Part shown: positions 4,570-16,188 of the stretch, one piece after another
Layout: the number at the start of each line of letters is the position of its first letter
Position numbering within the stretch: position 1 is the first letter of the stretch
IMG/VR virus record: IMGVR_UViG_2740892005_000001
Reading direction: 5' to 3' (one strand)
Source: a virus
Lineage: Duplodnaviria > Heunggongvirae > Uroviricota > Caudoviricetes
DNA length: 16,188 nucleotides
Position numbers and translations under genes: made by a program
Notes under the pieces: model-generated
The model's input: the letters and a program-made list of their open reading frames with translations, nothing else
Databases searched by the model: none
Told to the model about the DNA's origin: nothing

Positions 4570-4985
4570 GTTTTGCCCTGAAACTGGCGCGTGAGATGGG
4601 GCGACCCGACTGGCGTGCCATGCTTGCCGGGATGTCATCCACGGAGTATGCCGACTGGCACCGCTTTTACAGTACCCATTATTTTCATGATGTTCTGCTG
4701 GATATGCACTTTTCCGGGCTGACGTACACCGTGCTCAGCCTGTTTTTCAGCGATCCGGATATGCATCCGCTGGATTTCAGTCTGCTGAACCGGCGCGAGG
4801 CTGACGAAGAGCCTGAAGATGATGTGCTGATGCAGAAAGCGGCAGGGCTTGCCGGAGGTGTCCGCTTTGGCCCGGACGGGAATGAAGTTATCCCCGCTTC
4901 CCCGGATGTGGCGGACATGACGGAGGATGACGTAATGCTGATGACAGTATCAGAAGGGATCGCAGGAGGAGTCCGGTATGGCTGA
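4147..4985 (+). CDS. T: Tail assembly chaperone fusion gpG-T, made by a programmed -1 frameshift at 4545-4551
   Basis: The T reading frame (ORF track 4551..4985, ...FDGELSFALKLAREMGRPDWRAMLAGM...) has no convincing RBS of its own and lies in the -1 frame relative to G. The slippery heptamer G GGA AAG sits at 4545-4551, 18 nt before the G stop. The predicted fusion is about 279 aa, the size known for lambda gpGT. Confidence 0.9.
4545..4551 (+). other. Programmed -1 ribosomal frameshift slippery heptamer (G GGA AAG)
   Basis: The heptamer GGGAAAG is read directly in the sequence, in the correct phase of G (GGA at 4546-4548, AAG at 4549-4551). It is the canonical lambda G-T slip site. Confidence 0.88.
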
Positions 4986-7539
4986 ACCGGTAGGCGATCT
5001 GGTCGTTGATTTGAGTCTGGATGCGGCCAGATTTGACGAGCAGATGGCCAGAGTCAGGCGTCATTTTTCCGGTACGGAAAGTGATGCGAAAAAAACAGCG
5101 GCAGTCGTTGAACAGTCGCTGAGCCGACAGGCGCTGGCTGCACAGAAAGCGGGGATTTCCGTCGGGCAGTATAAAGCCGCCATGCGTATGCTGCCTGCAC
5201 AGTTCACCGACGTGGCCACGCAGCTTGCAGGCGGGCAAAGTCCGTGGCTGATCCTGCTGCAACAGGGGGGGCAGGTGAAGGACTCCTTCGGCGGGATGAT
5301 CCCCATGTTCAGGGGGCTTGCCGGTGCGATCACCCTGCCGATGGTGGGGGCCACCTCGCTGGCGGTGGCGACCGGTGCGCTGGCGTATGCCTGGTATCAG
5401 GGCAACTCAACCCTGTCCGATTTCAACAAAACGCTGGTCCTTTCCGGCAATCAGGCGGGTCTGACGGCAGATCGTATGCTGGTCCTGTCCAGAGCCGGGC
5501 AGGCGGCAGGGCTGACGTTTAACCAGACCAGCGAGTCACTCAGCGCACTGGTTAAGGCGGGGGTAAGCGGTGAGGCTCAGATTGCGTCCATCAGCCAGAG
5601 TGTGGCGCGTTTCTCCTCTGCATCCGGCGTGGAGGTGGACAAGGTCGCTGAAGCCTTCGGGAAGCTGACCACAGACCCGACGTCGGGGCTGACGGCGATG
5701 GCACGCCAGTTCCATAACGTGACGGCGGAGCAGATTGCGTATGTTGCTCAGTTGCAGCGTTCCGGCGATGAAGCCGGGGCATTGCAGGCGGCGAACGAGG
5801 CCGCAACGAAAGGGTTTGATGACCAGACCCGCCGCCTGAAAGAGAACATGGGCACGCTGGAGACCTGGGCAGACAGGACTGCGCGGGCATTCAAATCCAT
5901 GTGGGATGCGGTGCTGGATATTGGTCGTCCTGATACCGCGCAGGAGATGCTGATTAAGGCAGAGGCTGCGTTTAAGAAAGCAGACGACATCTGGAATCTG
6001 CGCAAGGATGATTATTTTGTTAACGATGAAGCGCGGGCGCGTTACTGGGATGATCGTGAAAAGGCCCGTCTTGCGCTTGAAGCCGCCCGAAAGAAGGCTG
6101 AACAGCAGAGTCAACAGGACAAAAATGCGCAGCAGCAGAGCGATACCGAAGCGTCACGGCTGAAATATACCGAAGAGGCGCAGAAGGCTTACGAACGGCT
6201 GCAGACGCCGCTGGAGAAATATGCCGCCCGTCAGGAAGAACTGAATAAGGCCCTGAAAGACGGAAAAATCCTGCAGGCAGATTACAACACGCTGATGGCG
6301 GCAGCGAAAAAGGACTATGAAACGACACTGAAAAAGCCGAAGCAGTCCGGCGTGAAGGTGTCTGCGGGCGATCGTCAGGAAGACAGTGCTCATGCTGCCC
6401 TGCTGACGCTTCAGGCTGAACTCCGGACGCTGGAGAAGCATGCCGGAGCAAATGAGAAAATCAGCCAGCAGCGCCGGGATTTGTGGAAGGCGGAGAGTCA
6501 GTTCGCGGTACTGGAGGAGGCGGCGCAACGTCGCCAGCTGTCTGTACAGGAGAAATCCCTGCTGGCGCATAAAGATGAGACGCTGGAGTACAAACGCCAG
6601 CTGGCTGCACTTGGCGACAAGGTTACGTATCAGGAGCGCCTGAACGCGCTGGCGCAGCAGGCGGATAAATTCGCACAGCAGCAACGGGCAAAACGGGCCG
6701 CCATTGATGCGAAAAGCCGGGGGCTGACTGACCGGCAGGCAGAACGGGAAGCCACGGAACAGCGCCTGAAGGAACAGTATGGCGATAATCCGCTGGCGCT
6801 GAATAACGTCATGTCAGAGCAGAAAAAGACCTGGGCGGCTGAAGACCAGCTTCGCGGGAACTGGATGGCAGGCCTGAAGTCCGGCTGGAGTGAGTGGGAA
6901 GAGAGCGCCACGGACAGTATGTCGCAGGTAAAAAGTGCAGCCACGCAGACCTTTGATGGTATTGCACAGAATATGGCGGCGATGCTGACCGGCAGTGAGC
7001 AGAACTGGCGCAGCTTCACCCGTTCCGTGCTGTCCATGATGACAGAAATTCTGCTTAAGCAGGCAATGGTGGGGATTGTCGGGAGTATCGGCAGCGCCAT
7101 TGGCGGGGCTGTTGGTGGCGGCGCATCCGCGTCAGGCGGTACAGCCATTCAGGCCGCTGCGGCGAAATTCCATTTTGCAACCGGAGGATTTACGGGAACC
7201 GGCGGCAAATATGAGCCAGCGGGGATTGTTCACCGTGGTGAGTTTGTCTTCACGAAGGAGGCAACCAGCCGGATTGGCGTGGGGAATCTTTACCGGCTGA
7301 TGCGCGGCTATGCCACCGGCGGTTATGTCGGTACACCGGGCAGCATGGCAGACAGCCGGTCGCAGGCGTCCGGGACGTTTGAGCAGAATAACCATGTGGT
7401 GATTAACAACGACGGCACGAACGGGCAGATAGGTCCGGCTGCTCTGAAGGCGGTGTATGACATGGCCCGCAAGGGTGCCCGTGATGAAATTCAGACACAG
7501 ATGCGTGATGGTGGCCTGTTCTCCGGAGGTGGACGATGA
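4978..7539 (+). CDS. H: Tail tape measure protein gpH
   Basis: 853 aa, the exact length of lambda gpH. N-terminus MAEPVGDLVVDLSLDAARFDEQMARVRRHF; long central helical, charged region typical of tape measure proteins; Gly-rich C-terminal part. The start overlaps the end of T by 8 nt. Confidence 0.95.
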   Translation: MAEPVGDLVVDLSLDAARFDEQMARVRRHFSGTESDAKKTAAVVEQSLSRQALAAQKAGISVGQYKAAMRMLPAQFTDVATQLAGGQSPWLILLQQGGQVKDSFGGMIPMFRGLAGAITLPMVGATSLAVATGALAYAWYQGNSTLSDFNKTLVLSGNQAGLTADRMLVLSRAGQAAGLTFNQTSESLSALVKAGVSGEAQIASISQSVARFSSASGVEVDKVAEAFGKLTTDPTSGLTAMARQFHNVTAEQIAYVAQLQRSGDEAGALQAANEAATKGFDDQTRRLKENMGTLETWADRTARAFKSMWDAVLDIGRPDTAQEMLIKAEAAFKKADDIWNLRKDDYFVNDEARARYWDDREKARLALEAARKKAEQQSQQDKNAQQQSDTEASRLKYTEEAQKAYERLQTPLEKYAARQEELNKALKDGKILQADYNTLMAAAKKDYETTLKKPKQSGVKVSAGDRQEDSAHAALLTLQAELRTLEKHAGANEKISQQRRDLWKAESQFAVLEEAAQRRQLSVQEKSLLAHKDETLEYKRQLAALGDKVTYQERLNALAQQADKFAQQQRAKRAAIDAKSRGLTDRQAEREATEQRLKEQYGDNPLALNNVMSEQKKTWAAEDQLRGNWMAGLKSGWSEWEESATDSMSQVKSAATQTFDGIAQNMAAMLTGSEQNWRSFTRSVLSMMTEILLKQAMVGIVGSIGSAIGGAVGGGASASGGTAIQAAAAKFHFATGGFTGTGGKYEPAGIVHRGEFVFTKEATSRIGVGNLYRLMRGYATGGYVGTPGSMADSRSQASGTFEQNNHVVINNDGTNGQIGPAALKAVYDMARKGARDEIQTQMRDGGLFSGGGR

Positions 7540-7865
7540 AGACCTTCCGCTGGAAAGTGAAACCCGGTATGGATGTGGCTTCGGTCCCTTCTGTAAGAAA
7601 GGTGCGCTTTGGTGATGGCTATTCTCAGCGAGCGCCTGCCGGGCTGAATGCCAACCTGAAAACGTACAGCGTGACGCTTTCTGTCCCCCGTGAGGAGGCC
7701 ACGGTACTGGAGTCGTTTCTGGAAGAGCACGGGGGCTGGAAATCCTTTCTGTGGACGCCGCCTTATGAGTGGCAGCAGATAAAGGTGACCTGCGCAAAAT
7801 GGTCGTCGCGGGTCAGTATGCTGCGTGTTGAGTTCAGCGCAGAGTTTGAACAGGTGGTGAACTGA
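7536..7865 (+). CDS. M: Tail tip protein gpM
   Basis: 109 aa, MKTFRWKVKPGMDVASVPSVRKVRFGDGYSQRA..., matching lambda gpM. ATGA overlap with the H stop. Confidence 0.94.
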   Translation: MKTFRWKVKPGMDVASVPSVRKVRFGDGYSQRAPAGLNANLKTYSVTLSVPREEATVLESFLEEHGGWKSFLWTPPYEWQQIKVTCAKWSSRVSMLRVEFSAEFEQVVN

Positions 7866-8563
7866 TGCAGGATATCCGGCAGGAAACACTGAATGAATGC
7901 ACCCGTGCGGAGCAGTCGGCCAGCGTGGTGCTCTGGGAAATCGACCTGACAGAGGTCGGTGGAGAACGTTATTTTTTCTGTAATGAGCAGAACGAAAAAG
8001 GTGAGCCGGTCACCTGGCAGGGGCGACAGTATCAGCCGTATCCCATTCAGGGGAGCGGTTTTGAACTGAATGGCAAAGGCACCAGTACGCGCCCCACGCT
8101 GACGGTTTCTAACCTGTACGGTATGGTCACCGGGATGGCGGAAGATCTGCAGAGTCTGGTCGGCGGAACGGTGGTCCGGCGTAAGGTTTACGCCCGTTTT
8201 CTGGATGCGGTGAACTTCGTCAACGGAAACAGTTATGCCGATCCGGAGCAGGAGGTGATCAGCCGCTGGCGCATTGAGCAGTGCAGCGAACTGAGCGCGG
8301 TGAGTGCCTCCTTTGTACTGTCCACGCCGACGGAAACGGATGGCGCTGTTTTTCCGGGACGTATCATGCTGGCCAACACCTGCACCTGGACCTATCGCGG
8401 TGACGAGTGCGGTTATAGCGGTCCGGCTGTCGCGGATGAATATGACCAGCCAACGTCCGATATCACGAAGGATAAATGCAGCAAATGCCTGAGCGGTTGT
8501 AAGTTCCGCAATAACGTCGGCAACTTTGGCGGCTTCCTTTCCATTAACAAACTTTCGCAGTAA
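7865..8563 (+). CDS. L: Tail tip protein gpL (Cys-cluster, Fe-S type)
   Basis: 232 aa, MQDIRQETLNECTRAEQSASVVLWEIDLTEVGGERYFF..., matching lambda gpL. C-terminal cysteine cluster C-x-W-x-Y-R-G-D-E-C ... C-S-K-C-L-S-G-C. The start shares one nucleotide with the M stop (TGATG). Confidence 0.94.
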   Translation: MQDIRQETLNECTRAEQSASVVLWEIDLTEVGGERYFFCNEQNEKGEPVTWQGRQYQPYPIQGSGFELNGKGTSTRPTLTVSNLYGMVTGMAEDLQSLVGGTVVRRKVYARFLDAVNFVNGNSYADPEQEVISRWRIEQCSELSAVSASFVLSTPTETDGAVFPGRIMLANTCTWTYRGDECGYSGPAVADEYDQPTSDITKDKCSKCLSGCKFRNNVGNFGGFLSINKLSQ

Positions 8564-8567
8564 TCCC

Positions 8568-9311
8568 ATGACACAGACAGAATCAGCGATTCTGGCGCAC
8601 GCCCGGCGATGTGCGCCAGCGGAGTCGTGTGGCTTCGTGGTGAGAACGCCGAAGGGGGAAAGATATTTTCCCTGCGTGAATATCTCCGGTGAGCCGGAGG
8701 CGTATTTCCGGATGTCGCCGGAGGACTGGCTGCGGGCAGAGATGCAGGGTGAGATTGTGGCGCTGGTCCACAGCCACCCCGGTGGTCTGCCCTGGCTGAG
8801 TGAGGCTGACAGGCGGCTGCAGGTGCAGAGCGATTTGCCGTGGTGGCTGGTCTGCCGGGGTGAGATTCATAAATTCCGCTGTGTGCCGCATCTTACCGGG
8901 CGGTGCTTTGAGCACGGGGTGACGGACTGTTACACGCTGTTCCGGGATGCTTATCATCTGGCGGGGATTGAGATGCCGGATTTTCATCGTGAGGATGACT
9001 GGTGGCGTCACGGTCAGAATCTCTATCTGGATAATCTGGAGGCCACAGGGCTGTATCAGGTGCCGTTGTCATCAGCACAACCGGGCGATGTGCTGCTGTG
9101 CTGTTTTGGTTCATCGGTGCCGAATCATGCCGCCATTTACTGTGGTGATGGCGAGCTGCTGCACCATATTCCTGAACAACTGAGCAAACGAGAGAGGTAT
9201 ACCGACAAATGGCAGCGACGCACACACTCCCTCTGGCGTCACCGGGCATGGCGCGCATCTGCCTTTACGGGGATTTACAACGATTTGGCCGCCGCATCGA
9301 CCTTCGTGTGA
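8568..9311 (+). CDS. K: Tail tip assembly protein gpK (JAMM/MPN-like N-terminal domain plus NlpC/P60-like C-terminal domain)
   Basis: ATG at 8568 lies 5 nt after the L stop. The product MTQTESAILAHARRCAPAESCGFVV... is 247 aa and contains the JAMM signature HSHPGGLPWLSEAD (H-x-H-x7-S-x2-D) plus a Cys (GVTDCYTLF) and downstream His (NHAAIY) as in NlpC/P60 peptidases. The ORF-track start at 8526 lies inside L. Confidence 0.9.
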   Translation: MTQTESAILAHARRCAPAESCGFVVRTPKGERYFPCVNISGEPEAYFRMSPEDWLRAEMQGEIVALVHSHPGGLPWLSEADRRLQVQSDLPWWLVCRGEIHKFRCVPHLTGRCFEHGVTDCYTLFRDAYHLAGIEMPDFHREDDWWRHGQNLYLDNLEATGLYQVPLSSAQPGDVLLCCFGSSVPNHAAIYCGDGELLHHIPEQLSKRERYTDKWQRRTHSLWRHRAWRASAFTGIYNDLAAASTFV

Positions 9312-9850
9312 AAACGGGGGCTGAAGCCATCCGGGCGCTGGCCACACAGCTCCCGGCGTTTCGTCAGAAACTGAGCGACGGCTGGTATCAGGTACGGATT
9401 GCCGGGCGTGATACAGGTGAAACGGAATTATCAGCCCGTCTTAATGAACCGCTGGCAAATGGTGCTGTGATCCATATCGTGCCGCGTCTGGCAGGAGCCA
9501 AAAGTGGCGGTGTGTTTCAGGCTGTGCTGGGGGCGGCTGTTATGGCGGTTGCTATATGGATGCCGGGGGTAGGAATTATGGCGAGTAATCTGCTGTTTTC
9601 TCTCGGTGCCAGTATGACGCTTGGCGGTGTTGCACAGATGCTGGCCCCTAAACCCAGAACCCCCCGCACACAGACAACGGATAACGGCAAACAGAACACC
9701 TATTTTTCTTCACTGGATAATATGGTTGCCCAGGGCAATGTTCTGCCCGTTCTGTACGGTGAAATGCGCGTGGGATCACGTGTGGTATCTCAGGAGATCA
9801 GCACAGCAGATGAAGGTGATGGTGGTCAGGTTGTGGTGATTGGTCGCTGA
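9209..9850 (+). CDS. I: Tail tip assembly protein gpI
   Basis: 213 aa, MAATHTLPLASPGMARICLYGDLQRFGRRIDLRVKTGAEAIRALATQLP..., with N- and C-termini (...VVSQEISTADEGDGGQVVVIGR) matching lambda gpI as I recall it. It overlaps the 3' end of K by 103 nt in another frame, as in lambda. It is about 10 codons shorter than lambda gpI (223 aa), with a different central hydrophobic segment. Confidence 0.88.
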   Translation: MAATHTLPLASPGMARICLYGDLQRFGRRIDLRVKTGAEAIRALATQLPAFRQKLSDGWYQVRIAGRDTGETELSARLNEPLANGAVIHIVPRLAGAKSGGVFQAVLGAAVMAVAIWMPGVGIMASNLLFSLGASMTLGGVAQMLAPKPRTPRTQTTDNGKQNTYFSSLDNMVAQGNVLPVLYGEMRVGSRVVSQEISTADEGDGGQVVVIGR

Positions 9851-9910: not shown

Positions 9911-12900
9911 ATGGGTAAAGGCAGCAGTAAGGGGCATACCCCGCGCGAAGCGAAGGACAACCTGAAGTCCACGCAGCTGCTGAGTGTGATCGATGCCATC
10001 AGCGAAGGGCCGGTTGAAGGTCCGGTGGATGGATTAAAAAGCGTGCTGCTGAACAGTACGCCGGTGCTGGACAGTGAGGGGAATACCAATATATCCGGCG
10101 TCACGGTGGTGTTCCGGGCCGGTGAGCAGGAGCAGTCACCGCCGGAGGGATTTGAATCCTCCGGCTCCGAGACGGTGCTGGGTACGGAAGTGAAATATGA
10201 CACGCCGATCACCCGGACCATCACGTCGGCAAACATCGACCGTCTGCGCTTTACCTTCGGTGTACAGGCACTGGTGGAAACCACCTCAAAGGGAGACAGG
10301 AATCCGTCGGAAGTTCGCCTGCTGGTTCAGATACAGCGTAACGGTGGCTGGGTGACGGAAAAAGACATCACCATTAAGGGCAAAACCACCTCGCAGTATC
10401 TGGCCTCGGTGGTGGTGGATAACCTGCCGCCGCGCCCGTTTAATATCCGGATGCGCAGGATGACGCCGGACAGCACCACAGACCAGCTGCTGAACAAAAC
10501 GCTCTGGTCGTCATACACCGAAATCATCGATGTGAAACAGTGCTACCCGAACACGGCACTGGTTGGCGTGCAGGTGGACTCGGAGCAGTTCGGCAGCCAG
10601 CAGGTGAGCCGTAATTATCATCTTCGCGGGCGCATTCTGCAGGTGCCGTCGAACTATAACCCGCAGACGCGGCAATACAGCGGTATCTGGGACGGAACGT
10701 TAAAACCGGCATACAGCAACAACATGGCCTGGTGTCTGTGGGATATGCTGACCCATCCGCGCTACGGCATGGGGAAACGTCTTGGTGCGGCGGATGTGGA
10801 TAAATGGGCGCTGTATGTCATCGGCCAGTACTGCGACCAGTCGGTGCCGGACGGCTTTGGCGGCACGGAGCCGCGCATTACCTGTAATGCGTACCTGACC
10901 ACACAGCGCAAGGCGTGGGATGTGCTCAGTGATTTCTGCTCGGCGATGCGCTGTATGCCGGTATGGAACGGGCAGACGCTGACGTTCGTGCAGGACCGAC
11001 CATCAGATAAGGTGTGGACCTATAACCGCAGTAATGTGGTGATGCCGGATGATGGCGCGCCGTTCCGCTACAGCTTCAGCGCCCTGAAGGACCGCCATAA
11101 TGCCGTTGAGGTGAACTGGATTGACCCGGATAACGGCTGGGAGACGGCGACAGAGCTCGTGGAGGATACGCAGGCCATTGCCCGTTACGGCCGTAACGTC
11201 ACGAAGATGGATGCCTTTGGCTGTACCAGCCGGGGGCAGGCACACCGCGCCGGGCTGTGGCTGATTAAAACGGAGCTGCTGGAAACGCAGACCGTGGACT
11301 TCAGCGTGGGTGCTGAAGGGCTTCGCCATGTACCGGGGGATGTCATTGAAATCTGCGATGATGACTATGCCGGTATCAGCACCGGTGGTCGTGTGCTGGC
11401 GGTGAACAGCCAGACCCGGACGCTGACGCTCGACCGTGAAATCACGCTGCCATCCTCCGGTACCACGCTGATAAGCCTGGTTGACGGAAGTGGCAATCCG
11501 GTCAGCGTGGAGGTTCAGTCCGTCACCGACGGCGTGAAGGTGAAAGTGAGCCGTGTTCCTGACGGTGTTGCTGAATACAGCGTATGGGGGCTGAAGCTGC
11601 CGACGCTGCGCCAGCGACTGTTCCGCTGCGTGAGTATCCGTGAAAACGACGACGGCACGTATGCCATCACCGCCGTGCAGCATGTGCCGGAAAAAGAGAC
11701 CATCGTGGATAACGGGGCGCACTTTGACGGCGAACAGAGTGGCACGGTGAATGGTGTCACGCCGCCCGCGGTGCAGCACCTGACCGCAGAAGTCACCGCA
11801 GACAGCGGGGAATATCAGGTGCTGGCGCGATGGGACACACCGAAGGTGGTGAAGGGGGTGAGCTTTATGCTTCGCCTGACCGTGGCAGCGGATGACGGCA
11901 GTGAGCGGCTGGTCAGCACGGCCAGGACGACGGAAACCACATACCGCTTCAGGCAACTGGCGCTGGGGAACTACAGGCTGACAGTCCGGGCGGTAAATGC
12001 GTGGGGGCAGCAGGGGGATCCGGCGTCGGTATCGTTCCGGATTGCCGCACCGGCAGCGCCATCGCGGATTGAGCTGACGCCGGGCTATTTTCAGATAACC
12101 GCAACGCCGCATCTTGCCGTTTATGATCCGACGGTACAGTTTGAGTTCTGGTTCTCGGAAAAGCGGATTGCGGATATCAGGCAGGTTGAAGCCAGCGCGC
12201 GTTATCTTGGTACGGCGCTGTACTGGATAGCCGCCAGTATCAATATCAAACCGGGCCATGATTATTATTTTTACATTCGCAGTGTGAACACCGTTGGCAA
12301 ATCGGCATTTGTGGAGGCTGTTGGCCAGCCGAGTGATGATGCATCCGGCTATCTGGATTTTTTCAAAGGAGAGATAGGGAAAACCCATCTGGCTCAGGAG
12401 TTGTGGACGCAGATTGATAACGGTCAGCTTGCGCCTGACCTGGCTGAAATCAGGACGTCCATTACGGATGTCAGCAATGAAATCACGCAGACCGTCAATA
12501 AGAAACTGGAAGACCAGAGTGCAGCGATCCAGCAGATACAGAAGGTTCAGGTTGATACAAATAATAACCTGAACAGCATGTGGGCTGTGAAGCTGCAGCA
12601 GATGCAGGACGGACGCCTTTATATCGCGGGTATTGGTGCCGGTATTGAGAATACCCCTGACGGTATGCAGAGTCAGGTGCTGCTGGCGGCGGACAGGATT
12701 GCGATGATTAATCCTGCGAATGGCAATACAAAGCCGATGTTTGTTGGGCAGGGCGATCAGATATTCATGAACGAAGTGTTCCTGAAATATCTGACGGCTC
12801 CCACCATTACCAGCGGTGGCAATCCCCCAACGTTTTCACTGACACCTGATGGTCGACTTTCTGCGAGAAATGCGGATATCAGCGGTAACGTGAATGCGAA

Positions 12901-13393
12901 CTCCGGGACGCTCAATAATGTCACGATTAACCAGAACTGTCGGATTCTGGGAAAACTGTCAGCTAACCAGATTGAAGGTGATATTGTCAAAACGGTGGGA
13001 AAAGCCTTTCCGAGAAATGGCAGTTATGCCAGCGGTACAATAACGGTCACTGTGTACGATGACCAGGCTTTTGACCGTCAGATAGTCGTCCCCCCCGTTC
13101 TGTTTCGCGGTGGTAAGCATGAAAACTTCAACAGCAACAACCAACAGTCATACTGGTATTCAACCTGTAAGCTGCAGGTGCTGAAGAACGGACAGGAAAT
13201 CTTTCAGCAACCCGCGACGGATGTCAGCAGGGTATTTTCATCAGTCATTGATATGCCTGCCGGACACGGCCATGTCACCCTGACTTTCAATGTTTCTTCA
13301 TATGGTGCAAATAACTGGACGCCAACGACCAGTATCAGCGACCTTCTTGTTGTCGTGATGAAGAAATCAACAGCCGGCATCAGTATCAGTTGA
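9911..13393 (+). CDS. J: Central tail fibre / host specificity protein gpJ (1160 aa), with an apparently divergent C-terminal receptor-binding region
   Basis: N-terminus [34 protein letters not shown]... and the first ~800 residues match lambda gpJ as I recall it, including the fibronectin-III-like central region. Lambda gpJ is 1132 aa and this ORF is 1160 aa. The final ~300 residues (from about ...[29 protein letters not shown]... to ...[16 protein letters not shown]) do not match my memory of lambda J. Confidence 0.93.
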
Positions 13394-13410: not shown

Positions 13411-13440
13411 CGGGCACCAGAAATGGTGCCTTTTTTATTT
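13411..13440 (+). terminator. Rho-independent terminator-like hairpin immediately downstream of J
   Basis: CGGGCACC-AGAAAT-GGTGCC followed by TTTTTTATTT: a perfect 6-7 bp GC-rich stem with a U-tract, 18 nt after the J stop and about 12 nt before the stf start. Confidence 0.55.
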
Positions 13441-13451
13441 GTGGAGTGAAT

Positions 13452-15473
13452 ATGGCAGTACAGATTTCAGGTGTGCTGAAAGACGGTGCAGGAAAACCGA
13501 TACAGAACTGCACCATTCAGCTCAAAGCAAAACGTAACAGCACCACAGTTGTGGTGAACACGGTGGCCTCAGAAAATCCGGATGAAGCCGGACGTTACAG
13601 CATGGATGTTGAGTATGGCCAGTACAGCGTCGCCCTGCTGGTTGAAGGTTTTCCGCCTTCACATGCCGGGACCATCACCGTGTATGAGGATTCTAAGCCG
13701 GGGACATTGAATGATTTTCTGGGCGCTGCAACAGAAGATGATGTTTGTCCGGAGGCACTGTATCGTTTTGAAAAGATGGTGGAAGAGGCGGCACGCAACG
13801 CTGAAGCCGCCTCTCAGAGCGCAGCGGCAGCAAAGAAATCAGAAACAGCAGCGGCATCGTCCAGGAACGCGGCGAAAACATCAGAGACGAATGCAGGTAA
13901 CAGCGCGAAAGCGGCAGCTTCTTCAAAAACAGCCGCACAAAACGCAGCAACAGCGGCAGAACGTTCAGAGACAAATGCCCGTGCGTCAGAAGAAGCCTCC
14001 GCAGACAGTGAAGAGGCTTCCCGCCGTAATGCAGAGTCAGCCGCTGAAAATGCCGGAGTCGCCACCACAAAAGCGCGGGAGGCCGCAGCAGACGCAACAA
14101 AGGCCGGGCAGAAAAAGGATGAGGCTCTGTCGGCAGCGACACGAGCTGAAAAGGCGGCAGACCGCGCAGAAGCCGCAGCGGAAGTGACTGCAGAGCCCTG
14201 TGCGAATATAGTGCCGCCGCTGCCTGATGTGTGGATACCGTTTAACGATTCACTGGATATGATTACGGGTTTTTCGCCATCTTATAAAAAGATAGTTATT
14301 GGTGACGATGAAATAACAATGCCAGGCGACAAGATTGTTAAGTTTAAACGTGCTTCAACAGCAACGTATATTAATAAGTCCGGCCAACTCAAGCTTGCTG
14401 AAGTTGACGAACCGCGATTTGAGCGCGATGGCTTATTGATTGAAGGACAGAGGACAAATTATCTGAGGAACTCAAATAAACCAGACTCATGGACTGTTCA
14501 TTCCGCACTGAATAAAACATTTGGCACTGATAAACAGGGGTTCAATTATGCCACGGTGACACCCACGGAAAGTATAGTGGGAACAACAGGTGGCTATACT
14601 GTGCATGGTGTGGTTGCAGCAGACAGATTCCCGCTGGCAAGTGGTGAATGTTTCACTTTTTCGTGCCGGGTTAAAGGCGCTAAAGCACGATGCAGGTTAA
14701 GAGTTTCAGTTATTATTGGTGGAACAGATACCTTCTCTGCTGACTCTTATCTTGATCTGGATACCCGGATCGCAACAGTAAGCGGTAATACATCCCTTAT
14801 AACAGCCAAAGCTGAACAACAGGGCGAGTGGACCTACTATGAGGCCACTTATACAGCTAATACGGACATTGATACCGTTAACTGTGCTTTTTATATGACA
14901 AATAAAATAAGTAATGAGACATTCTATGATGACTCAACATTAACCATGACGACGCCGCAAATTGAACTGGGCAATACGGCATCGTCATTTATTGTAACTA
15001 CAATGCCAACAACACGCGCAAGTGATGTAGTTACTATCCCATCGCAGAATAACCTGTCAACACGGCCTTTTACGGTATTGTGCGAAGTAAGCAGGAACTG
15101 GAGTACACCGCCCAATGTTGCGCCAAGGATATTTGATGTTGGAGGGCACAGTATTGATGATAATTATTTATCGCTGGGGTTTGTTGCAACAGGAAAGATA
15201 AGCGCCAACGTAGGAATGGTTCAGCCACAAATTGCCTCAGATGGAGAAAGGTTCATTGTGGGTGTGAGAGCTAAATCTGATTTATCAGTAAATGCAATAT
15301 GCAATGGTAATTATACAACAAACCTTAATGGTAAAATATTTGGAGTTACAGCAACATCGTACCGGTTTGGTGGGCAGACCGCAGCAGGAACGCGTCATTT
15401 GTTTGGACACATCAGAAATTTCAGAGTCTGGTTTAAAGAATTAAATGACAGGCAAATCAAGGAGGCAGTATGA
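13452..15473 (+). CDS. stf: Side tail fibre protein (Stf-like), chimeric: lambda-Stf-like N-terminus, Ala/Ser-rich repeat shaft, unrelated AT-rich C-terminal domain
   Basis: ATG at 13452 with GGAG 5 nt upstream. N-terminus MAVQISGVLKDGAGKPIQNCTIQLKAKRNSTTVVVNTVASENPDEAGRYSMDVEYGQYSV... closely resembles the lambda Stf (orf-401) N-terminus, followed by an A/S/E/T/N-rich repetitive segment. From about residue 250 (nt ~14200) the sequence and base composition change to a domain I cannot place. 673 aa in total. Confidence 0.85.
   Translation: MAVQISGVLKDGAGKPIQNCTIQLKAKRNSTTVVVNTVASENPDEAGRYSMDVEYGQYSVALLVEGFPPSHAGTITVYEDSKPGTLNDFLGAATEDDVCPEALYRFEKMVEEAARNAEAASQSAAAAKKSETAAASSRNAAKTSETNAGNSAKAAASSKTAAQNAATAAERSETNARASEEASADSEEASRRNAESAAENAGVATTKAREAAADATKAGQKKDEALSAATRAEKAADRAEAAAEVTAEPCANIVPPLPDVWIPFNDSLDMITGFSPSYKKIVIGDDEITMPGDKIVKFKRASTATYINKSGQLKLAEVDEPRFERDGLLIEGQRTNYLRNSNKPDSWTVHSALNKTFGTDKQGFNYATVTPTESIVGTTGGYTVHGVVAADRFPLASGECFTFSCRVKGAKARCRLRVSVIIGGTDTFSADSYLDLDTRIATVSGNTSLITAKAEQQGEWTYYEATYTANTDIDTVNCAFYMTNKISNETFYDDSTLTMTTPQIELGNTASSFIVTTMPTTRASDVVTIPSQNNLSTRPFTVLCEVSRNWSTPPNVAPRIFDVGGHSIDDNYLSLGFVATGKISANVGMVQPQIASDGERFIVGVRAKSDLSVNAICNGNYTTNLNGKIFGVTATSYRFGGQTAAGTRHLFGHIRNFRVWFKELNDRQIKEAV
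13780..14190 (+). repeat. Degenerate in-frame tandem repeats encoding the Ala/Ser/Glu-rich fibre shaft of Stf
   Basis: Recurring protein motifs of about 14 residues (SETAAASSRNAAKT / SETNAGNSAKAAAS / SKTAAQNAATAAER / SETNARASEEASAD ...), with GCN/GCA-rich nucleotide sequence. These repeats explain the spurious long ORFs in the other frames here (13711..14187 + and 13693..14142 -). Confidence 0.5.
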
Positions 15474-15748
15474 AAGATTTAACTTTGAAATTTCCTGGTA
15501 ACAGAGAGTTTAAATCCTTCCTGTCATCTCTTGACTGGGAGGAGGATGAAGACCTCCAGAATAAACTGTTAGTCGATGAAATTGGTTTCACCTACACAGA
15601 AACAGGGGTAACAGAAGAGGGAGAACCTGTCTGTGTCCGGAATGACGGTTATTTTGTCAACATTCGCATTCTTGATGACTTGTTTGATGTTTCTGTATTC
15701 TCTGATTATGTCGTGGAGCTGGAAACACCGCTTCGGGAATGGAGCTGA
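15470..15748 (+). CDS. Hypothetical small acidic protein (92 aa), translationally coupled to stf; possible fibre-tip chaperone or accessory protein
   Basis: ATG at 15470 overlaps the stf stop (ATGA) and has a strong RBS AAGGAGG 4-5 nt upstream. Product MKDLTLKFPGNREFKSFLSSLDWEEDEDLQNKLLVDEIGF... is rich in D/E. It has no resemblance to lambda Tfa that I can see. AT-rich like the stf 3' part. Confidence 0.6.
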   Translation: MKDLTLKFPGNREFKSFLSSLDWEEDEDLQNKLLVDEIGFTYTETGVTEEGEPVCVRNDGYFVNIRILDDLFDVSVFSDYVVELETPLREWS

Positions 15749-15760
15749 AAGGAGGAAATA

Positions 15761-16054
15761 ATGGATATAAGCCCCTTACTTCATGCACTTTGTGCTGTGG
15801 CTGCGCAGATACTGGTTGGTCTTTTTACCGGAAACTGGGCTTACGGAGCGATAGCCGGTTGTACGTTCTTCATTGCGCGTGAACATACCCAGGCAGAATA
15901 TCGCTGGATTGAAATGTTCGGGCATGGCAAGCGAATGAATATGCCGTGGTGGGGCGGTTTTGATCCGCGAGCTTGGGATGTGGCAAGCCTGATGGATTTT
16001 GCTGTGCCGGTGGTGGCGTGTCTGCTGGTCTGGCTGTTGGTTAATCGTGGGTGA
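15761..16054 (+). CDS. Hypothetical small membrane protein (97 aa, two predicted hydrophobic helices)
   Basis: Very strong RBS AAAGGAGG about 6 nt upstream of ATG 15761. Product has an N-terminal hydrophobic stretch (LLHALCAVAAQILVGLFTGNWAYGAIAGCTFFIA), a Trp/charge-rich middle (EYRWIEMFGHGKRMNMPWWGGFDPRAWD) and a C-terminal hydrophobic stretch (FAVPVVACLLVWLLV). Not recognised as any lambda late protein. Confidence 0.6.
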   Translation: MDISPLLHALCAVAAQILVGLFTGNWAYGAIAGCTFFIAREHTQAEYRWIEMFGHGKRMNMPWWGGFDPRAWDVASLMDFAVPVVACLLVWLLVNRG

Positions 16055-16071
16055 AAAAAGGTGAGCTGTAT

Positions 16072-16188
16072 ATGCAACGGAGGAAGAAACCCCGTTGCTG
16101 GAAGCCAGGAAAAAGTATGAAGTGGTTTACTGAATTTGGCCACCTGAACAGAGGTGATATGCTCACCTCAGAACAACACAGGTGCCAT
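16072..16188 (+). CDS. Possible 5' end of a further ORF running off the window (basic N-terminus MQRRKKPRCWKPGKSMKWFTEFGH...)
   Basis: ATG at 16072 with AAGGTGAG about 6 nt upstream; open to the window end (39 codons). Too short and truncated to call with confidence. Confidence 0.3.
   Translation, partial: MQRRKKPRCWKPGKSMKWFTEFGHLNRGDMLTSEQHRCH

Follow-up and report, generated by a model that had tools for sequence, protein, structure and literature searches.

A small predicted inner-membrane protein conserved behind diverse phage receptor-binding genes and on proteobacterial chromosomes

What is the small membrane protein encoded behind the tail fibre genes of a lambdoid prophage, and what might it do there? 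The question arises from a 97-codon open reading frame (ORF) near the end of a 16,188-nucleotide (nt) stretch of viral DNA (Caudoviricetes; IMG/VR record IMGVR_UViG_2740892005_000001). The whole stretch, here called the window, is the late region of a lambdoid prophage. A sequence-only reading had described the ORF as a small membrane protein in the slot where lambdoid phages carry lysogenic-conversion or superinfection-exclusion genes (morons), with a possible role in blocking receptor use or DNA entry by competing phages. We find that it belongs to a catalogued but uncharacterised family (PHROG 1443, gp24 of phage 21) without a Pfam or NCBIfam model. The family is widespread, its conserved polar residues are predicted to lie at the cytoplasmic face of the inner membrane, and it is conserved far more strongly than the receptor-binding genes that precede it.

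The ORF runs on the plus strand from an ATG at 15761 to a TGA at 16052-16054 and begins 12 nt past the stop of a 92-residue ORF. Its Shine-Dalgarno sequence, AAAGGAGG, shares its first base with that upstream ORF, where it serves as the final base of the stop codon. Both the reading frame and this ribosome-binding site were found exactly as the sequence-only reading had given them. The encoded 97-residue protein, MDISPLLHALCAVAAQILVGLFTGNWAYGAIAGCTFFIAREHTQAEYRWIEMFGHGKRMNMPWWGGFDPRAWDVASLMDFAVPVVACLLVWLLVNRG, matches the phrog_1443 profile with an E value of 2.4e-58, residues 1-96 aligning with profile positions 1-96 of 97. It is identical to phage 21 gp24 (UMO75439, 'putative membrane protein'), which lies in an identical three-gene unit; the two proteins are 100% and the two DNAs 96% identical. 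A collection of 5.8 billion proteins yielded 577 homologs at E<=1e-3, and an exhaustive profile search gave 439 family clusters at 50% identity. Against diverged Escherichia copies the ratio of nonsynonymous to synonymous substitution rates (dN/dS) was 0.15-0.19. The full-length profile match, the homologs, the dN/dS values and the identity of the protein to that of phage 21 despite differing DNA together argue, at the level of sequence, that the ORF is a real gene and that purifying selection acts on it. Frames of about 100 codons are frequent in the window and one overlaps this gene on the minus strand (15841-16143), as might be expected if the 97-codon frame were a chance or mis-called one. 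However, the hundreds of homologs, the full-length profile match, a dN/dS below 0.2, the strong ribosome-binding site and a confident structure model leave that explanation hardly credible at all.

The sequence-only reading had asked whether the protein is homologous to a characterised housekeeping protein, and no such relative appeared in searches of Pfam, NCBIfam, PADLOC and PDB sequences. For the 97-residue protein nothing in Pfam, NCBIfam or PADLOC rose above noise; the N-terminal membrane domain of PhoR (PF11808) scored 14.9 bits against a gathering cut-off of 27.1. The family profile matched no PDB sequence below E 0.9. When 116 family representatives were scanned against Pfam, the PhoR N-terminal domain was hit by eight of the 116, VirB3 by four and one holin model by a single member, all below threshold and rejected as compositional. 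Homology to Cor, Llp, Bor or Lom was not detected, with no Pfam match at E<=1 and none of them among the 25 families listed for the 116-member scan. Homologs, distant ones included, are all named 'hypothetical protein' in their source records, and neither the phage 21 genome paper nor keyword literature searches yielded a discussion of the gene.

An AlphaFold2 model built on a 25-sequence alignment (predicted local distance difference test (pLDDT) 91.7, predicted template modelling score 0.75) contains three helices, spanning residues 4-23, 26-53 and 74-96, with residues 54-73 forming an ordered non-helical loop (pLDDT about 88-90). By hydropathy there are two hydrophobic stretches, residues 4-39 and 74-96, and the region between them holds four Trp, five Lys/Arg and five Asp/Glu. 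The earlier description of two hydrophobic segments flanking a Trp- and charge-rich loop is therefore right in composition but not in helix number, since the first stretch is a hairpin of two helices in the model, closed tightly by a two-residue turn. One face of helix 1 is conserved (A12, Q16, G20 and G24). Helix 2 is weakly hydrophobic, its Gly/Ala-rich membrane part (residues 26-39, with G29xxxG33) giving way to the polar family signature. Conserved S76, D79 and P83 lie near the start of helix 3, and the single residue G97 follows it.

Across the 116 representatives, a core of eight residues (H8, R40, E41, Q44, A45, E46, W72 and P83) is at least 90% conserved. The signature residues R40, E41, Q44, A45 and E46 reach at least 97%. 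A further six (Y47, R48, I50, R58, P62 and D79) are conserved at 75-88%, R58 and D79 at 78-88%. The loop thus contributes conserved R58, P62 and W72, and among 25 close homologs it is almost invariant, reading AREHTQAEYRWI..FG.GKR.NMPWWGGFD together with the signature. Both Cys residues and H42 are not conserved family-wide. The conserved core falls on i+4 stripes. H8 and E41 each lie 16 residues from the hairpin turn and D79 lies five residues into helix 3, a spacing relative to the helix limits by which the polar residues should meet at one end of the bundle. We infer from the model that the conserved polar residues probably sit at equivalent depths at that end. Family members are all stand-alone proteins of about 60-146 residues, none fused to another domain.

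Which side of the membrane this end would face can be predicted from charge. The family-mean number of Lys plus Arg is 0.84 in the N-terminus and 5.37 in the loop (about 6.2 together), against 0.14 in the turn and 0.63 in the C-terminal tail (about 0.8). By the positive-inside rule, these counts make the C-terminus external and both the N-terminus and the conserved loop cytoplasmic, and the near-invariant residues are accordingly predicted to face the cytoplasm. The N-terminus, MDISPLL, has no basic n-region; C11 is preceded by H-A-L, so that there is no lipobox, and is itself not conserved. The earlier statement that the protein lacks signal-peptide and lipobox architecture is borne out by these features. 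Because that architecture is absent, the protein is not Cor-like. Its three hydrophobic helices and lack of an export signal agree with the sequence-only preference for an integral inner-membrane protein over a Cor-like lipoprotein, and we predict a small integral protein of the inner membrane.

The protein is much more constrained than its neighbours. Copies from E. coli, Comamonas, Leclercia and Aeromonas share about 55-64% protein identity, 64% being the value for the prophage copies of E. coli and Comamonas kerstersii. In contrast, direct comparison of the E. coli and Comamonas fibres leaves only a 59-residue shared motif, and the 92-residue ORF has no significant similarity to its Comamonas counterpart (E 0.064). 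Clustering of ORFs had joined the E. coli and Comamonas fibres, and the possibility that the protein co-varies with a single fibre type was rejected when the 59-residue motif proved to be all that they share. Since the protein is well conserved while the adjacent fibres can barely be aligned, it does not appear to track receptor specificity. The genes that precede the homologs in phages represent at least seven unrelated receptor-binding architectures (Table 1). With such diversity and conservation far stronger than that of the neighbours, the earlier idea of a block on receptor use is disfavoured as far as one particular receptor is concerned.

In phages the homologs are the last cistron after the receptor-binding genes, whether the tail is long and non-contractile, contractile or short, and in most phage loci the homolog starts -4 to 27 nt from the end of the gene before it. 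The unit of fibre, 92-residue and 97-residue genes is common to phage 21 and many lambda-like coliphages, and the 92-residue ORF accompanies the membrane-protein gene in Escherichia prophages. We found the pair of small genes in 1,122 of 5,426 complete E. coli genomes, counting genomes that matched at least 80% of a 789-nt query spanning both. Jumbo Aeromonas phages (about 235 kb) have homologs too.

The simplest reading of the gene, from its sequence context, is that it closes the late fibre transcript as its last cistron. A promoter had been proposed as something to look for at 15700-15760 or inside the 92-residue ORF, and none was found; a consensus scan of 14550-15760 detected no promoter-like site, though weak or embedded promoters could escape such a scan. 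Promoter-like sites were likewise not found upstream of the homolog in phage 21 or the P22-like phage JEP4, and no terminator-like site follows the gene in the window, phage 21 or JEP4. The gene is tightly coupled to the late gene before it and shows no signals of its own, which suggests that the protein is made late with the fibre. The sole terminator-like site near the fibre unit on the plus strand precedes the unit (Table 1), so late transcription must read through it. A classical moron with its own promoter was rejected given the 12-nt upstream gap and the absence of promoter- and terminator-like sites from these scans. The base composition does show a moron-type contrast, with a GC content of 0.50-0.54 (about 0.52) across the gene against 0.38-0.45 in the distal half of the fibre gene and the 92-residue ORF, to which the Gly/Ala/Trp/Arg-rich protein may contribute. 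The slot behind receptor-binding genes holds the conversion genes gtrABC in P22, oac in Sf6 and Z/fun in P2, and the JEP4 and phiHAP-1 homologs share it. The moron position seen by the sequence-only reading is thus a genuine conversion-type slot, but the anatomy of a moron, with a promoter and terminator of its own, was not detected. The conversion genes also differ in belonging to recognisable enzyme families or having their own expression signals, and in being receptor-specific; neither holds for the 97-residue protein.

Stand-alone copies occur on bacterial chromosomes, outside prophages. Five Aeromonas species share one site, after a pirin gene and near genes for a RIO1-like kinase and two lipid A acyltransferases, and five Leclercia genomes share another. 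The neighbours in Sphingomonadales are housekeeping genes, which include, by Pfam, polynucleotide phosphorylase, DAHP synthase, AMP nucleosidase and HerA and, by eye, ligA and a cyclophilin. At three Sphingomonadales loci a gene for a cyclopropane-fatty-acid synthase begins 3-32 nt downstream, and at eight a gene for a PhyH-like dioxygenase is nearby, mostly adjacent and divergent. In a neighbour-joining tree, of low resolution because the protein has only 97 residues, the chromosomal copies fall into one clade each for the sphingomonads, Aeromonas and Leclercia, those of Aeromonas and Leclercia being nested among phage copies. We considered whether the chromosomal copies are prophage-end scars at tRNA attachment sites and rejected this, tRNA genes not being systematically adjacent. 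The stand-alone homologs, together with the jumbo Aeromonas phages, indicate that the family is not only a lysogeny gene.

The conserved His/Glu/Asp/Arg cluster, the purifying selection and the stand-alone chromosomal orthologs point to a generic site at the inner membrane, and the protein is probably a generic inner-membrane accessory factor. For its activity we hold one reading tentatively, at less than an even chance: that it may be a receptor-independent effector at the membrane interface, either a very small enzyme or a ligand-binding module, and not a mask for a specific receptor. The His/Glu/Asp/Arg cluster would then be a binding or catalytic site at the inner membrane. Its target would be one that many Proteobacteria share, for example a lipid or an intermediate linked to lipid, a metal, or a membrane protein that is itself conserved. 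In a phage, the protein would be produced late together with the fibre and would alter the envelope of the infected or lysogenic cell, whichever receptor the phage uses. A bolder version, more speculative and doubtful, is that the family could represent a new membrane enzyme or metal/lipid-binding module of about 95 residues and three helices, shared by phages of each tail type and by bacterial chromosomes, which would use a His-Glu-Asp-Arg site at the cytoplasmic interface to remodel a universal envelope component late in infection; the gene would at the same time form a conserved right-hand flank of exchangeable receptor-binding cassettes. DgkA, the 121-residue diacylglycerol kinase, is a three-transmembrane-helix enzyme whose catalytic residues, acidic or polar, lie at the cytoplasmic interface. 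The 97-residue protein resembles it in size, in its three membrane helices and in the predicted placing of acidic and polar residues, but there is no sequence or fold match, and the likeness is an analogy which shows that such small proteins can be enzymes.

Several observations weigh against the effector reading. Ninety-seven residues is very small for an enzyme, and the searches gave no sequence similarity or informative fold similarity to any enzyme or cofactor-binding protein. The lipid theme comes from a few chromosomal neighbourhoods, most neighbours being unrelated housekeeping genes. Linkage to receptor-binding genes may itself be uninformative on function, because these genes end the late operon in lambda-, P22- and P2-like phages and cargo is tolerated there. 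The membrane topology, and hence the cytoplasmic position of the loop, remains a prediction. The phage 21 record cites a TMHMM result of two segments with both ends inside, by which the loop would be periplasmic, and it also cites a SignalP result of a 29-residue signal sequence; a cleaved signal peptide is disfavoured by the conserved residues inside helix 1.

The main rival is superinfection exclusion at the inner membrane, in which the protein would block incoming DNA or ejection proteins in the style of T4 Imm, P22 SieA or HK97 gp15 and so shield the lysogen or a cell late in infection. T4 Imm and HK97 gp15 are small phage-encoded integral inner-membrane proteins, and gp15 has a chromosomal homolog, YebO of E. 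coli. SieA is a protein of the same kind (PMC10883804). The 97-residue protein is like Imm, SieA and gp15/YebO in size and predicted inner-membrane location, and its gene, which closes a tail-fibre operon, is in the slot that conversion or exclusion genes occupy elsewhere. Several prophages of one genome each carry a copy (E. ruysiae, L004 and L005; Pantoea sp. 18069, L020, L025 and L033), and the fixed-site chromosomal copies in Aeromonas and Leclercia would be expected if the protein is useful to the host alone. It is also a pseudogene in HC6-like coliphages and so dispensable for lytic growth there. HC6 and its relatives (L155, 2965-3162) have an unannotated, decayed remnant directly behind a fibre gene that encodes an S74 chaperone domain; an in-frame stop lies past the D79 equivalent, and the N-terminal half is gone. 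However, Imm, SieA and gp15 are expressed from the prophage or early, whereas our gene ends a late operon and has no promoter-like site of its own, so that expression from a repressed prophage is not evident. Sequence similarity to the three is lacking, the Pfam models of Imm, SieB and YebO and PADLOC gave no match, and the family differs from them in being conserved across proteobacterial classes. It also occurs in the jumbo Aeromonas phages, and an identity of about 55-64% across gamma-, beta- and alpha-proteobacterial hosts with a predicted cytoplasm-facing conserved surface would be odd for a protein recognising fast-evolving periplasmic entry proteins. We regard exclusion as possible, if somewhat doubtful. 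An accessory role in lysis timing, or a viroporin-like one, in which the protein would oligomerise late in the inner membrane and alter the membrane potential or holin triggering, seems quite unlikely. It draws on the late co-expression that the operon position would imply and on the polar conserved residues H8, Q16, E41 and D79 in or at the edge of membrane helices, but mainly on Comamonas prophages in which lysis genes directly follow the homolog (L002, 6300-8033; L024, 6258-8036). By eye, this cassette comprises two holin-like genes, an SLT-type endolysin gene and an Rz-like gene in which a lipoprotein frame resembling Rz1 is embedded, the first holin-like gene starting inside the homolog's stop codon. 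Elsewhere the lysis genes are distant, as in E. coli, P22-like and P2-like phages, and they are not adjacent in the window, phage 21, JEP4 or phiHAP-1; no lysin is near the stand-alone chromosomal copies. The protein also lacks the charged C-terminal tail of holins, G97 alone following helix 3 (the family mean is a tail of about five residues with 0.6 Lys/Arg), its conservation is far above that usual for holins, and the weak holin-model match concerned one member of 116.

A receptor-specific mask matched to the phage's own fibre, on the lines of Cor (for FhuA) or T5 Llp, would stop progeny or competitors from using the receptor to which the fibre binds. In its favour is the tight linkage to receptor-binding genes, reminiscent of llp, which adjoins the receptor-binding gene of T5. 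Cor (of phi80, N15 and T1), Llp, lambda Lom and Bor are indeed all encoded next to or after tail or receptor-binding genes. They are, however, outer-membrane lipoproteins or a beta-barrel, while the 97-residue protein is all-helical and predicted to be in the inner membrane, with almost no predicted periplasmic surface. It has neither lipobox nor signal peptide, the conserved residues of helix 1 speak against cleavage, and the protein barely changes behind the seven or more unrelated receptor-binding architectures, all of which makes a mask highly improbable. A Cor-, Lom- or Bor-type protein was rejected for want of a lipobox, signal peptide, homology or beta-barrel; a Lom/Ail beta-barrel would have about 170-200 residues, for which the protein is too short as well as being all-helical in the model.

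About one in five complete E. coli genomes carries the gene pair, as does the classical phage 21, and among the carriers are many that we take, from strain names in the match list, to be ST131-type clinical strains. Should the protein act in exclusion, prophages would be carrying a very widespread determinant of phage resistance that matters for phage therapy of E. coli. Should it prove to be a tiny membrane enzyme or ligand-binding module, a new family would emerge that ties late phage functions to envelope chemistry. Under either reading the gene can serve as a marker for the 3' boundary of receptor-binding cassettes. The gene is unusual in being conserved across classes, in following unrelated receptor-binding genes whichever of the three tail types the phage has, and in having stand-alone chromosomal copies.

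Table 1. Coordinates of features in the window, and receptor-binding or other genes found before homologs
Feature	Position in window, or locus	Strand	Basis or remark
J-like gene	9911-13393	+	Upstream of the fibre unit
Hairpin and T-run between J-like gene and fibre unit	13412..13431	+	Phage 21 annotates a terminator
Side tail fibre gene, first of the three-gene unit	13446..15473	+	PF08400 and NF048003 matches
92-residue acidic ORF (phrog_1361)	15470..15748	+	Start overlaps fibre stop via ATGA
Shine-Dalgarno sequence AAAGGAGG	15748..15755	+	Read from sequence; ATG 5 nt further on
Coding sequence of the 97-residue membrane protein (PHROG 1443 family; phage 21 gp24)	15761..16054	+	Sequence, profile match, homologs, dN/dS
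Helix 1 (aa 4-23), strongly hydrophobic, with near-invariant H8	15770..15829	+	AlphaFold2, hydropathy, conservation
Helix 2 (aa 26-53)	15836..15919	+	AlphaFold2, conservation, hydropathy
Family signature AREHTQAEYRWI (aa 39-50)	15875..15910	+	Conservation
Non-helical Trp/Arg-rich loop GHGKRMNMPWWGGFDPRAW (aa 54-73)	15920..15979	+	AlphaFold2, conservation
Helix 3 (aa 74-96), strongly hydrophobic	15980..16048	+	AlphaFold2, conservation, hydropathy
Left end of ISEc52-like IS3-family element (TGAAGTGGTTTACTGAATTTGGCCACC...)	16118..16188	+	64 nt past the stop of the 97-residue ORF
PF08400 fibre before homolog	Window, phage 21		
Giant J-like protein before homolog	L002, L033		Comamonas, Pantoea prophages
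Fibre and small protein before homolog	L011, L020, L024, L030, L031		Comamonas, Pantoea, Chelativorans
Additional distal fibre gene inserted before homolog	L005, L007		Other Escherichia prophages
Tail fibre before homolog	L029		Leclercia
Mtd-like target gene (phrog_2889) of diversity-generating retroelement type before homolog	L032, L034		Comamonas nitrativorans, Pigmentiphaga humi prophages
Pectate-lyase/S74 tailspike before homolog	L064		Desulfovibrio
GDSL-esterase tailspike before homolog	L161, L162		
P22-like tailspike before homolog, int after	JEP4		
P2-type tail fibre assembly gene before homolog, sheath gene after	phiHAP-1		P2-like myovirus
DUF4376 protein before homolog	L060		Halomonas; counted with phiHAP-1 as P2-type fibre plus assembly protein

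The order of genes in the window agrees with the position downstream of the fibre genes given by the sequence-only reading, as the J-like gene, the side tail fibre gene and the 92-residue ORF all precede the membrane-protein gene. In the side tail fibre, a PF08400 N-terminal domain is followed by an Ala/Glu-rich stalk and, distally, by a lectin-like domain (NF048003). Within its gene the composition changes sharply at 13800-14300: the Ala/Glu/Lys-rich stalk has a GC content of 0.56-0.62 and an AT skew of about 0.55, and the part for the lectin-like distal domain has a GC content of 0.39-0.45, which suggests a mosaic joint near 14200. The 92-residue ORF possibly encodes a fibre assembly factor.

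Three further observations concern the homologs in other genomes. In L032 and L034 (about 4785-9800) the homolog lies between the Mtd-like gene and avd-like and reverse-transcriptase-like genes, which were assigned by eye. It therefore appears to be inside the cassette of a diversity-generating retroelement, in which two pairs of avd-like and reverse-transcriptase-like genes seem to be present. L006, from a metagenome-assembled genome labelled Collinsella sp., holds a 93% identical unit of Escherichia-type fibre, 92-residue and membrane-protein genes that is probably E. coli contamination of the bin. The best 80 loci from a scan of viral contigs came almost entirely from E. coli prophages that were nearly identical to one another, and brought little new diversity.

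On the 3' side of the gene, an Rfam search returned only a sub-threshold IS009 match (16052-16143; 31.5 bits against a gathering score of 117, E 7.6e-5), which spans the 3' flank and the end of an insertion sequence (IS) and is probably not meaningful. The 100-codon minus-strand ORF that overlaps the real gene is spurious and extends over the IS junction. Homology to phage 21 and lambda-like phages breaks off at 16118, precisely where the IS begins, and its ISEc52-like left end recurs at thousands of sites in E. coli genomes and plasmids.

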